Shown: in pieces, positions 54,730 through 60,110 of the stretch | Layout: the number at the start of each line of letters is the position of its first letter | Position numbering within the stretch: the stretch's first letter is position 1 | Origin: Mustelus asterias | Lineage: Eukaryota | NCBI RefSeq assembly: GCF_964213995.1 | Contig: NC_135822.1 | Location: 25,234,001-25,298,000, forward strand | Direction: 5' to 3' | Length of the DNA: 64,000 bases | The notes under the pieces: generated by a model | Seen by the model: only the letters and a program-made list of their open reading frames with translations | Database searches by the model: none | What the model was told of the DNA's origin: nothing | Position numbers and translations under genes: made by a program

Positions 54730-54796
54730 GGTATGACGAAGATTCGGACTCGGATTGCTGGATTCAAAGTCTAGAGTGCTGACCATTACACCATGG
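54730..54796 (-). pseudogene. tRNA-Gln(TTG)-like pseudogene split near its 5' end by the Penelope insertion (5' remnant at 57272-57287)
   Basis: Reverse complement CCATGGTGTAATGGTCAGCACTCTAGACTTTGAATCCAGCAATCCGAGTCCGAATC resembles vertebrate tRNA-Gln; T-loop and acceptor stem degenerate. Confidence 0.8.
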
Positions 54797-55402
54797 TAAG
54801 AAGTCTCACAACACCAGGTTAAAGTCCAACAGGTTTATTTGGTAGCAAATACCATAAGCTTTCGGAGCAATGCTCCTTCGTCAGATGGAGTGGTCTCTGT
54901 TCTCAAACAGGGCACAGACACACAAATCAAATTACAGAATACTGATTAGAATGCAAATCTCTACAGCCAGCCAGGTCTTAAATGCACAGACAATGTGGGT
55001 GGAGGGAGCATTCAACACAGGTTGAAGAGATGTGTATTGTCTCCAATACACAGGAGACAATGTATTGTCTCAGACACACAGACACAGGACAGCTTGTGAA
55101 ATTGTGCAAGTCCAGGAGTCAAGCTGTGGGGGTTACTGATAATGTGACATAAATCCAACATCCCGGTTTAGACCGTCCTCATGTGTGCGAAACTTGGCTA
55201 TCAGTTTCTGCTCAGTGACTCTGCGCTGTCGTGTGTCGTGAAGGCCGCCTTGGAGAACGCTTACCTGAAGATCCAAGGCTGAATGCCCGTGACTGCTGAA
55301 GTGCTCCCCCACAGGAAGAGAACAGTCTTGCCTGGTGATTGTCGAGCGGTGTTCATTCATCCGTTGTCGTAGCGTCTGCATGGTTTCCCCAATGGTTTCC
55401 CC

Positions 55403-56935
55403 ATGGTTTCAGGAAACGGAACCCTGTGCGAGAACCTCTCCGGCTATGTCGAGGGCATCTTGAAACCCATTGTACAAAGAACCCCCAGCTTTTGTCGCGA
55501 CACTACGGACTTCCTACAGAAACTCAACACACATGGAGCAGTTGAACCAGGAGCACTCCTCGTCACAATGGATGTCTCGGCACTCTACACCAGCATCCCC
55601 CACGATGATGGCATTGCTGCAACGGCCTCAGTACTCAATGCCGTCAACTGCCAGTTTCCAGATGCAATTTTACAACTCATCCGCTTCATCCTGGATCACA
55701 ATATCTTCACCTTCAACAACCAGTTCTTCATCCAGACACACGGAACAGCCATGGGGACAAAATTCGCACCTCAATATGCCAACATCTTCATGCACAGGTT
55801 CGAACAAGACTTCTTCACCGCACAGGACCTTCAACCGATGCTATACACTAGATACATCGATGACATTTTCTTCCTTTGGAGTCATGGTGAGCAATCACTG
55901 AAACAACTATATGATGACATCAACAAGTTCCATCCCACCATCAGACTCACCATGGACTACTCTCCGGAATCGGTTGCATTCTTGGACACACACATCTCCA
56001 TTAAGGACGGTCACCTCAGCACCTCACTGTACCGCAAGCCCACGGATAACCTCATGATGCTCCACTTCTCCAGCTTCCACCCTAAACACGTAAAAGAAGC
56101 CATCCCCTACGGACAAGCCCTCTGAATACACAGGATCTGCTCGGATGAGGAGGATCGCAACAGACACCTCCAGACGCTGAAAGATGCCCTCATAAGAACA
56201 GGATATGGCGCTCGACTCATCGATCAACAGTTCCGACGTGCCACAGCGAAAAACCGCACCGACCTCCTCAGAAGACAAACACGGGACACGGTGGACAGAG
56301 TACCCTTCGTCGTCCAGTACTTCCCCGGAGCGGAGAAGCTACGGCATCTCCTCCGGAGCCTTCAACATGTCATTGATGAAGACGAACATCTCGCCAAGGC
56401 CATCCCCACACCCCCACTTCTTGCCTTCAAACAACCACGCAACCTCAAACAGACCATTGTCTGCAGCAAACTACCCAGCCTTCAGGAGAACAGTGACCAC
56501 AACACCACACAACCCTGCCACAGCAACCTCTGCAAGACGTGCCGGATCATTGACATGGATGCCATCATCTCACGTGAGAACACCATCTACCAGGTACATG
56601 GTACCTACTCTTGCAACTCGGCCAACGTTGTCTACCTGATACGCTGCAAGAAAGGATGTCCCGAGGCATGGTACATTGGGGAAACCATGCAGACGCTACG
56701 ACAACGGATGAATGAACACCGCTCGACAATCACCAGGCAAGACTGTTCTCTTCCTGTGGGGGAGCACTTCAGCAGTCACGGGCATTCAGCCTTGGATCTT
56801 CAGGTAAGCGTTCTCCAAGGCGGCCTTCACGACACACGACAGCGCAGAGTCACTGAGCAGAAACTGATAGCCAAGTTTCGCACACATGAGGACGGTCTAA
56901 ACCGGGATGTTGGATTTATGTCACATTATCAGTAA
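55403..56935 (+). pseudogene. Penelope RT (QTHGTAMG, YTRYIDDIF) plus GIY-YIG endonuclease (VVYLIRC...WYIGET), one in-frame TGA at 56123
   Basis: ORFs 55403-56125 and 56291-56935 are in the same frame; the stop is consistent with CGA>TGA decay. Confidence 0.9.
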
Positions 56936-57142
56936 CCCCCACAGCTTGACTCCTGGACTTGCACAATTTCACAAGCTGTACTGTCTGGAGACAATACACA
57001 TCTCTTTAACCTGTGTTGAATGCTCCCTCCACCCACATTGTCTGTGCATTTAAGACCTGGCTGGCTGTAGAGATTTGCATTCTAATCAGTATTCTGTAAT
57101 TTGATTTGTGTGTCTGTGCCCTGTTTGAGAACAGAGACCACT

Positions 57143-57179
57143 CCATCTGACGAAGGAGCATTGCTCCGAAAGCTTATGG
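57143..57179 (+). ncRNA. Minimal type I hammerhead ribozyme motif of the Penelope terminal repeat (mirror copy at 54852-54888, minus strand)
   Basis: CCAT-CTGACGA-A-GGAGC att GCTCC-GAAA-GCTT-ATGG: core boxes, stem II, palindromic AAGCTT, stem I. Confidence 0.7.
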
Positions 57180-57767
57180 TATTTGCTACCAAATAAACCT
57201 GTTGGACTTTAACCTGGTGTTGTGAGACTTCTTACTGTGCTTACCCCAGTCCAACGCCGGCATCTCCACATCATTACACCATGGAACAGGCCTTTTTTTT
57301 ATGAAGGAAAGAGTGGCAGGGGGGAGAAATGGAACAGCTGCTGACAAGGAATGGGGGATGGATGTTACAGGATGGTCAATGTTTAGAATTCTCTCCCCCT
57401 GTGAGCAGTGGAGGCTGGGTCATTGAATATATTCAAGGCTGAATTTTTTGATTGTCAGGGAAGTCCTGGGTTATCGGGGCAGGCAGGAAAGGAGAGTTGA
57501 GGTCATATTAGACCAACCATCATATTGACAAGTACAGTAGGCTTGAAGGGGCCAATGGCCTATTTCTGTTTCTTATGGACAAGAGACCCAAGACGGAGGA
57601 ATGCAGTGTGTACACAGTAAGCAAAAGGAAACCAACAGCTGTTAAATGACGGGGTGAAAAAGAAATGCTTCTCCCAACTCTACACTAATATGTAGGGATC
57701 ACTGGAAGACTGACTGTAGCCAATTGTGCCACCACTGCCAACGTGATGAGGTTCACTAACTCAGTAC

Positions 57768-58020
57768 AGATTGAAGTTATGAGGTTACACTGAGGCTTCA
57801 TTTGAAGCAATTTTTTTAAAGCGGCATCTCGGCCGTTTGGCTAAGATGCAAATGAGACCAAGCCTTGAAGGAGGTGCAATGCCTGCTCCAATCAGCTTGG
57901 ATCATGTAGATCAAGCCCAAGACAGGAAGTGGTGAGCCTGTCTTGTCAGCTCGGATCTGGAATGTCTCGCTTGTTGAGACTTTGAATTGGATATAAACAA
58001 TAGGAATTGAATTTGGAATA
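57768..58020 (+). mobile_element. U2 snRNA-headed element, diverged copy A lacking most of the first head
   Basis: TCTCGGCCGTTTGGCTAAGAT at ~57827-57847 and colinear body matching copy B in the opposite orientation. Confidence 0.65.
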
Positions 58021-58464
58021 TTCTTGTTCATATGACATGGTGACACACTGGCACCCATTTTTTGGGTATATTCTTCATTTTTGACTTGTAGCAATTGTAA
58101 ATGATTCACTTTTTTGCTTCAGCAAGCTCCTGCCATGCTAAATGGGATGAGACAACAAGCATTTTACCTGTGGGTTGTGGAGCATTTCATTATTACCATA
58201 GTACTGGCCAGTCCTTGTGTTCATGTGGCCCACTCCAGGACATCAGCATAAAAATCTAGGCTGACACTCCAGTGCTGCTGAAAGTGCCTTCTTTTGGATG
58301 AGACATTAAAGCCCTGTTTGCATGGTGGCCATTAAGAGATCCCATGCCACTGTGTCATTTTATAGGCAGTACAAAATAATGGCTGCAAGGGCCTGGGGAG
58401 GTCAGGTGCTCATGAAAGGTATCATGTGAATTGTTACATATTACATGTGTGGTAATTAAATATA

Positions 58465-58855
58465 TTTTGATTTGATTCATTGTCACATGTATTAGCATAC
58501 AGTGAAAAGTATTGTTTCTTGCACGCTATACAAAGTGCACTGTTCATAGAGAAGGAAAGGAGTGTGCAGAATGTCGTGTTACAGTCATAGCTAGGGTGTA
58601 AAGAAAGACCCAGCTTAATGCAAGGTAGATCCATTCAGAAGTCTGATGGCAGCAGGCAAGAGCTGTTCTTGAGTCGGTTGGTACGTAACCTCAGACTTTC
58701 GTACCTTTCTCCCCAATGGAAGGGAGAACGTCTGGGGTGCGTGGGGTCCTTGATTATGCTGGCTGCTTTGCCGAGGCAGCGGGAAGTGTAGACAGAGTCA
58801 ATGGATGGGAGGCTGGTTTACGTGATGGACTGGGCTAGTCATGACCTTTTGTAGT
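58465..58855 (-). mobile_element. Rex1/Babar-like LINE 3' fragment (shorter copy at 45385-45530)
   Basis: Minus strand reads SLPSIDSVYTSRCLGKAASIIKDPTHP...RTNRLKNS...AIRLLN; (ATCAA)-type tail. Confidence 0.65.
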
Positions 58856-59285
58856 TTATGTAAATATATTTCATTTGGAGGGCTCTAATGGGTCAGTAGA
58901 CAAGTACTTGTGCACAAATTACATGGTACGTTTGAGGTGTATATCCACTTTTAGTTCAAAATAAATTCAAAAAGCTGCTGTTGGTTTAATTTTGCAGGGG
59001 AAGCTGCTTTATTTTTCTTGTAGTCAAATCCACCTCCTTATGGTTAAATTTGGAAAAGTTCTGGATCATTGTTCTGTGGGTCTGGAATCTGATGATGGAT
59101 AAATTTTTAATTCAATGTGTATTGAGTGTTAATCTCCTGATGTAGCTCTGAAATGAGAAAGTATTATATATCCTTAGCTAATTTCTTAATGTGAGAAGCA
59201 CGTACAGAATATTACTACTTTTATACATTTTCTGGAGTTCTTAGTAAATCCAGACACCTTTTCCATCGAACCCTGGTTGGGAGGC

Positions 59286-59577
59286 TTTTTTTAAAATACT
59301 TTTCCAATTCAATCAAATCAAGTCCAATTCAGAGTCTCAACAAGTTGAGACATTTCCGATCCAGGCTAAGACAGGGCATGCAACCCTCTACCCTGTCCTG
59401 GGCCTGATCTACATGAGCCAAGCTGATTGGAGGAGGCACAGGTCTTCCTCCTCCAAGGCTTGATCTCATTTACATCTTAGCCAAAAGGCCGAGATGTCGC
59501 TTTTTTAAAAAATTGCTTCAGATGAAAATAAATGTGACCCAATGACCTCAATCTTAGCCAAAAGGCCGAGAAGCGAT
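59286..59577 (-). mobile_element. U2 snRNA-headed short interspersed element, copy B (two U2 5' heads, hairpin body, A-rich tail)
   Basis: 59551-59577 reverse-complements to ATCGCTTCTCGGCCTTTTGGCTAAGAT (U2 nt 1-27); second head at ~59474-59494; body homologous to copy A. Confidence 0.7.
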
Positions 59578-59619: not shown

Positions 59620-60110
59620 GTAGGCGCCGCGGGAGTCTCCTCCAGTATCCCGTGATGCCGCGGGAGTCAATGACGGCCAGGCGTCCTCCAATGCCCCGTG
59701 ATGCAGCAGGTGCCCGTGGCTGGCGGCGCCTCCTCCTCCAGCATCCCGTGATGCAGCGGGGGCGCCTGTGTGGCTGGCGGCGGCGGCGGCGCCTCCTCCT
59801 CCAGAATCCCGTGATGCAGCGGGCGCCGGGTGGCTGGCGGCGCCTCCTCCAATATCCCGTGATGCCCTGCGATTGTTGGGTGCGTCTGCATTGGGTCCTC
59901 CTGTAGTCGGCGGTGCGGCGGGCAGTAAGATGGCGGAAAGTGATTATGAGTCGGTGCTGTGTGTGAAGCCGGAGATTCACGTTTACAGGATCCCACCGAG
60001 GGCAACGAACCGGGGCTACAGGTACGGATGGGGTGGGGTTCGCGGGGCCTTCGGGAGAAACGGAGTGACAGCTCGCGTTGATGATGACCCACGGTCGAAG
60101 TGACAGTGGA
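59620..60110. promoter_or_regulatory. NECAP2 CpG island with five imperfect ~45-60 bp tandem units, each with a ZNF143/Staf-like motif
   Basis: CpG-rich; CCCGTGATGC recurs near 59649, 59695, 59745, 59808, 59856; YY1-type AAGATGGCGG overlaps the start codon. Confidence 0.7.
59930..60021 (+). CDS. NECAP2: NECAP2 exon 1 ([31 protein letters not shown]); later exons not found in window
   Basis: NECAP N-terminus; AG|GTACGG donor; 92 nt; RATNRG and position downstream of SZRD1 favour NECAP2 over NECAP1. Confidence 0.9.

Follow-up and report, generated by a model that had tools for sequence, protein, structure and literature searches.

Why should the 5' end of the spliceosomal U2 RNA stand at the head of a hairpin-rich sequence with an A-rich tail, present as two inverted copies within a short stretch of shark DNA, and how does such a sequence multiply? 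The question arises from a window of 64,000 nucleotides of the Mustelus asterias genome, i.e., the whole stretch of DNA that was analysed, in which the initial annotation had proposed a dimeric U2-headed retroposon of the SINEU type. That proposal stands, and the high copy number of the sequence bears it out: the element is almost certainly a SINE family, and we regard as probable the fuller reading, namely that it is a U2-derived retroposon of ~330 nt, likely moved by Keno-type proteins and likely transcribed in part from U2 loci.

One of the two copies, copy B, belongs to subfamily B and occupies 292 nt of the minus strand (59286..59577). Its first head (59551..59577, minus strand) is, as first read from 59577 to 59551, an exact U2 nt 1-27 and matches the genome's own U2 gene, the family norm being nt 1-37/39. 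Next comes a left-arm remnant (59498..59550, minus strand) with the strand predicted to pair with the head, a short hairpin that is damaged here, and an A/T linker; this segment, originally taken for a spacer of ~55 nt, is part of the element itself, and the left arm resembles the 5' stem-loop of U4 in the oldest copies. The second U2 piece is real, with nt 7-27 exact at 59494-59474 of the minus strand, inside a second head (59472..59497) formed by U2 stem-loop I and closed by extra pairs. The rest of the copy, on the same strand, comprises the long hairpin H4 (59413..59469), whose loop varies between subfamilies and which is paralogous to the next long hairpin, H5 (59358..59409); the latter, which can be aligned to U2 nt 40-62 along its 3' arm, contains a G-C/G.U/A-U compensatory pair. 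Hairpin H6 (59334..59351) aligns with U2 stem-loop IIb, and short TTGAW-type repeats with the A-rich tail (59286..59333) complete the unit, so that the three hairpins and the tail described at the outset are all there (z -4.8).

One feature of this copy had been read as typical and is not. The head that stops at nt 27, short of the branch-point recognition sequence, is private to copy B, where ~35 nt are deleted after U2 nt 27. Of 97 copies with a full head, 78 remain identical to U2 as far as nt 37-40, and GUAGUA is therefore normally present. The best non-self matches of copy B are 87-93% identical, with none colinear across its deletion. Copy B was also considered as a source element and rejected, as none of its 40 best matches is a daughter with the same deletion.

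Copy A belongs to the older subfamily A. It is found on the plus strand (57770..58000) as a 5'-truncated element without the first head, its internal head being at 57824-57847 (plus strand). The colinearity reported for this copy holds (183 of 227 aligned columns identical), while its extent is ~57770-58000 rather than up to 58020. Two inverted copies 1.3 kb apart, both without a TSD, are what a local inverted duplication might look like, and one may likewise think of independent U2-LINE chimeras or of the end of a U2-targeting LINE. All of these are extremely improbable. The copies are 81% alike, as against 90-96% identity to dispersed members of separate subfamilies (92-96% for the dispersed relatives of copy A), and, since they come from different subfamilies, they are not the products of a local duplication; chimeras are at odds with an architecture fixed across thousands of copies; and, the U2 head apart, comparing the element with this genome's Keno-like LINE, discussed below, yields nothing significant (best E 0.063). 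That the body is not a LINE end agrees with position sampling, in which none of 30 3' ends terminates a LINE.

Regarding the surroundings, copy B is arranged head to head with a first coding exon (59930-60022, plus strand; Pfam DUF1681), presumably of a NECAP-like gene, and starts ~350 nt upstream of it. A CpG-rich region with five repeats of ~42 nt (59626-59874), whose core we take to resemble a ZNF143/Staf site, separates the two. On the other side of copy A, perfect inverted arms of 250 and 311 nt (54796-57235) enclose RT-like and GIY-YIG-like frames (55373-56935), which we assume to be a Penelope-like element; adjoining its end is a weak tRNA-like match (54736-54794, minus strand; 27.3 bits, below the cut-off).

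Exact-word counts confirm that copies number in the thousands genome-wide. The element is a dispersed, non-coding family of ~330 nt (units of 306-328 nt), a fixed multi-copy unit with an A-rich tail. A 22-mer common to the subfamilies has 5,322 exact matches and a 23-mer from the last hairpin has 4,242, with no match for the reversed-pattern control in either case. The 23-mer is present in 17 of 24 incidentally met B copies, which together with its 4,242 matches suggests ~6,000 B copies, and the older type makes up ~22 of the first 100 matches listed for the 22-mer. The absence of a TSD, noted at first, is correct for both window copies and does not extend to the family, where TSDs are common: an exact TSD of at least 10 bp flanks 17 of the 35 copies sampled by position, while mismatched pairs show one in 76 of 1018 cases (7.5%). 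In addition, 5'-truncated copies are common and tandem re-insertion occurs, with an adjacent copy at 7 of 26 sites. Nearest-neighbour distances have a median of 3% for the family, 3.2% for subfamily B, which is young, and 4.9% for the older subfamily A, whose tail differs from that of B; a third, still older type occurs at two loci, and the family as a whole has many sublineages with mosaic loops. Some copies (L022, L077) carry a microinversion in the second hairpin, where the sequence between the two arms of the stem is turned round. Rfam recognizes no tRNA, 5S or 7SL part in the element, and T4-T6 runs are seen directly inside it. Among sampled words, 21-41% are present in sequencing runs from 8 organisms and 6 studies, a possible source study having been left out. 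The family is real, young and, by its described features, of SINEU type.

The initial annotation also proposed a constrained RNA structure, and here the evidence is supportive, though of unequal strength. The predicted fold has six hairpins and a z of -7.7 in the sense orientation versus -5.1 in the antisense one. In the first of them, U2 nt ~11-39 are predicted to pair with the next 30 nt of the element, through a helix so rich in G.U pairs that the antisense strand does not form it. Scored for RNA pairing, the antisense arm is equalled by 0 of 500 shuffles, and by plain sequence identity it is non-significant (316 and 545 of 1000). The model thus predicts a head paired with the element's own next segment, in which the branch-point motif would be buried. 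Pairing-preserving changes and variable loops agree with such a constraint. Pairing is kept by 31 of 51 shared variants (those in at least 5 of 112 copies) versus 75 of 247 private ones (p 8e-5), and shared variants affect 41 of 186 paired columns versus 36 of 91 unpaired ones (p 0.003), private changes being evenly spread. The structure was derived from the same sequences, so that these pairing tests lean its way. Two-sided covariation lends weak support: it occurs at 6 pairs, with one clear G-C/G.U/A-U series among them, and does not exceed shuffles (273/500). Moreover, 94.9% of cells pair (50 of 90 near-full copies), and the cell counts beat shuffles (4/500) but are inflated by relatedness.

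A strong, strand-specific structure maintained across subfamilies is also what one would look for in a host non-coding RNA, such as a U2-derived decoy or a small-RNA precursor, whose retro-pseudogenes would be the copies seen. We consider this very unlikely, because several subfamilies succeed one another with changing loops and tails, no single conserved gene locus was found, and Rfam gives U2 as the sole family.

The body, described as non-U2, is probably U2 as well in good part, namely decayed U2 40-102 together with a piece of U4, judging from alignments against shuffles. Its 3' portion is colinear with U2 nt 40-102 at a level reached by 0 of 500 shuffles for the oldest copy, 5 for A and 25 for B, whereas the corresponding figures for the left arm and the U4 5' stem-loop are 3, 37 and 487. 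A second old copy, itself decayed, gives 64 of 500 shuffles for U2 40-102 and 493 of 500 for U4, and the variant U2 gene described below yields weaker scores with the body (24-180 of 500). These likenesses come from transition-weighted alignments chosen after a first look, and Rfam recognizes neither U4 nor U1 nor 7SK there. An element that is a mosaic of decayed snRNA pieces, its second U2 remnant lacking the branch-point motif, is on these comparisons moderately supported.

As for the machinery, this genome carries a Keno-like LINE with a zinc-knuckle Tx1-type ORF1, an AP endonuclease, an RT and a zf-RVT domain (PF03372, PF00078 as a partial match below the cut-off, PF13966, PF00098 and PF23057/8). 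The published 3' target of Keno is U2 nt 39 onward, according to the available text of two reports (PMC6136364; PMC4640811), and the same junction is found here: in an 8,035-bp U2 unit on C24 the poly(A) of the LINE is followed by U2 nt 39 onward, and the LINE ends at nt 39 in the arrays of C21 too. The C24 region in question (L061, 44.81-44.94 Mb) consists of ~16 almost identical units of 8,035 bp. Every unit combines an intact U2 and U2 39-191 with a Keno-like LINE, which is thus amplified along with the U2 array; the array LINE is interrupted in its ORF2. The Keno-like LINE is dispersed as well (915 first-look candidates). All 13 full-length copies examined outside the arrays start with a U2 head that stops at nt 35, and all 13 3' ends outside the arrays lie away from U2, with TSD-like repeats similar in length to those of the element; the LINE is for this reason best called "Keno-like, relaxed", without strict U2 specificity.

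Several further observations concern the LINE and its meetings with the element. A tail common to both was considered and dropped, the two being alike by eye and non-significantly so (617 and 878 of 1000 shuffles). The Keno 5' UTR folds back on the U2 head in 3 of 3 folds, but one junction lacks it, and the duplex is marginal (11/500 shuffles), other Keno windows scoring equally. At L137 a Keno-like copy with a 13-bp TSD sits inside a U4 snRNA copy. In another repeat, an element and a Keno-like LINE have insertion points a few bases apart (L062:4440-4600 and L222/L223, one case each), and at L216 and L219-L221, a locus duplicated on four small contigs, the element is directly followed by a full-length Keno-like 5' end.

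We consider mobilisation of the element by Keno-type proteins likely. The alternative is that another poly(A)-recognising L1/Tx1 family moves most of the dispersed copies, Keno being responsible for those at U2 sites only; the tail that element and Keno do not share would fit this, as would dispersed targets that are not U2-like. It is an unlikely alternative, since the Keno-like LINE, too, is dispersed and has TSD-like repeats about as long as those of the element, shares the U2 head with the element, and abuts it at one amplified locus.

The insertions at U2 itself bear on the partner and on the route of transcription alike. Canonical U2 genes form arrays on C24, and a variant U2 (90% identical to the canonical one, 170 bits in Rfam) is repeated in 448-bp units on C21 (28.05-28.08 Mb; L161-L164), where several insertions of the Keno-like LINE, in either orientation, interrupt the units. 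The tail of the element runs directly into U2 nt 39 at 14 junctions, 9 from subfamily B and 5 from older subfamilies at 4 loci, with none in the controls; by an arithmetic estimate, ~0.06 would be expected by chance for the nine of subfamily B. These nine are divided among the canonical cluster (2), a variant U2 gene (4) and U2 fragments (3), and one more case is known with a 1-nt deletion. Copies at U2 sites are ~15 of >5,000, with U2-resident copies at C24:43.06 Mb, C21:28.06 Mb and C14:62.23 Mb, and the U2 likeness of the dispersed target sites does not exceed that of shuffles (556/2000, n=29). Upstream, one copy stands behind the upstream region of canonical U2 (identity of 94% over 300 nt), and a 24-mer of the variant-U2 upstream DNA has 15 matches, of which 7 continue into the head and the element and one, outside C21, into a full-length LINE 5' end. 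In the 1,833-bp array at C24:43.02-43.06 Mb (L064-L067), several U2 units carry an internal duplication of ~16-20 nt near nt 18-37, possibly scars left at the insertion site.

Certain dispersed copies carry more than the element. At L141 and L147, TSDs of 13 and 16 bp enclose a U2 fragment, 36 and 93 nt of variant-U2 upstream DNA, respectively, and the whole element. At L232 a 13-bp TSD surrounds the last ~45 nt of the element plus U2 39-94, and at L102 and L146 TSDs surround the element, U2 39 onward and the 3' end of the LINE. Such flank-bearing copies look as would be expected if read-through RNAs from interrupted U2 loci had been inserted elsewhere, and on the arrangement of these sequences we incline slightly towards U2 loci as a real source of templates.

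The proposed cycle would then run as follows. Keno ORF2p would prime on the A-rich tail; most insertions would fall at non-U2 sites and have TSDs of 7-20 bp, and few would fall at U2 nt 38/39. In the latter case the head of the element, matching the first 38 nt of the gene, would give a seamless 5' junction and place the copy behind U2 upstream DNA, so that a new template could come from the U2 promoter or from read-through of a neighbouring U2 unit. In its RNA, according to the predicted fold, the head pairs with the next segment of the element; the spliceosome would then not meet the branch-point and U6-pairing sequences, hidden in this helix. The complete form of this proposal, i.e., a SINE without a promoter of its own that cycles by way of U2 genes, with homing by Keno, a head that rebuilds the 5' end of the gene and so brings the element under the snRNA promoter, and an RNA selected to hide or delete the branch-point motif and thereby spare splicing, we hold tentatively and at somewhat less than even chances.

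The main competitor accepts the same family and the same Tx1 partner and differs in the source of the RNA: templates would arise by Pol II read-through at dispersed copies, the U2 insertions would be by-products, and the flanks would be added by template switch onto Keno or U2 RNA. It draws on the many sublineages with mosaic loops and on the lack of a master copy at any U2 locus, nearest neighbours being 1.6-7.6% apart among 112 sampled copies; moreover, of the U2-resident copies, the one that follows canonical upstream DNA has diverged furthest and has a private deletion. The 5'-extended copies belong to different sublineages, and the starts of the extensions of L147 and of the Keno copy L148 are no more than 1 nt apart, so that template switching onto Keno RNA by way of the common head explains the extensions equally well; in the available text of PMC4494074 the 5' extensions of SINEU-2 are ascribed to template switch or to flanking promoters. 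This competitor is nevertheless rather unlikely, because L232 would require a switch exactly at nt 39, the insertion site and the head length match, and the element follows 7 of the 15 variant-U2 upstream matches.

Transcription from U2 loci, if true, would add an snRNA-promoter route to the biology of SINEs and provide a case of an RNA parasite that folds away the active site of its parent RNA. On a more practical level, young TSD-flanked insertions may act as lineage markers.

Among the known systems, the R2 element is promoterless and transcribed with its target gene, and the upstream target sequence on its RNA would give seamless 5' junctions. Its co-transcription with 28S rRNA is cited in the text of PMC4494074 available to us. 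The shark element differs from R2 in targeting an snRNA gene transcribed by Pol II and in having most of its copies outside the target. With Keno (Tx1 clade) and Utopia it shares the insertion base in U2 and a 3' junction continuing at nt 39, whereas those are autonomous and coding, as far as the available text goes (PMC4640811, PMC6136364), and the element is non-coding; also unlike them, the Keno-like LINE of this genome is dispersed as well. Tailless U2 retropseudogenes, as presented in the part of PMC5322556 at hand, resemble it in their U2 5' fragments and TSDs, but in the shark element the head belongs to a larger unit of constant make-up that also has a body and a tail.

The closest relatives in kind are SINEU-1, -2 and -3, described in the available text of Kojima 2015 (PMC4494074) as found in crocodilians only and mostly old, with Mariner-N4 as a common target. 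The accessible parts of PMC5381603, PMC5786205, PMC4758252 and PMC5322556 contain no shark case, and our search of the literature outside subscription journals, Repbase Reports and Dfam returned no published snRNA-headed SINE from a shark; in the literature found, Repbase and Dfam aside, the SINEU-like kind is in print for crocodilians only. By the same partial text of PMC4494074, the likenesses are many: a U2-derived head, repeated snRNA pieces, a length below 500 nt, an A tail with no LINE-derived tail, T4-T6 runs comparable with the internal oligo-T of SINEU, tandem insertions around the TSD, and a Tx1 partner inferred from a common target, the partner LINEs being U2-headed. Against that account (PMC4494074), the shark element has another host lineage, the U2 gene itself as the target in place of Mariner-N4, copies behind U2 upstream DNA, and a predicted head fold-back that the available text does not mention for SINEU. 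How SINEU are transcribed is named there as an open question (Kojima 2015, PMC4494074, available text). A spliceosomal-RNA mosaic with U2 twice and U4 once would, if the present reading is true, answer it, and a young family with a candidate partner LINE and named U2-flanked copies makes the question testable at defined loci.
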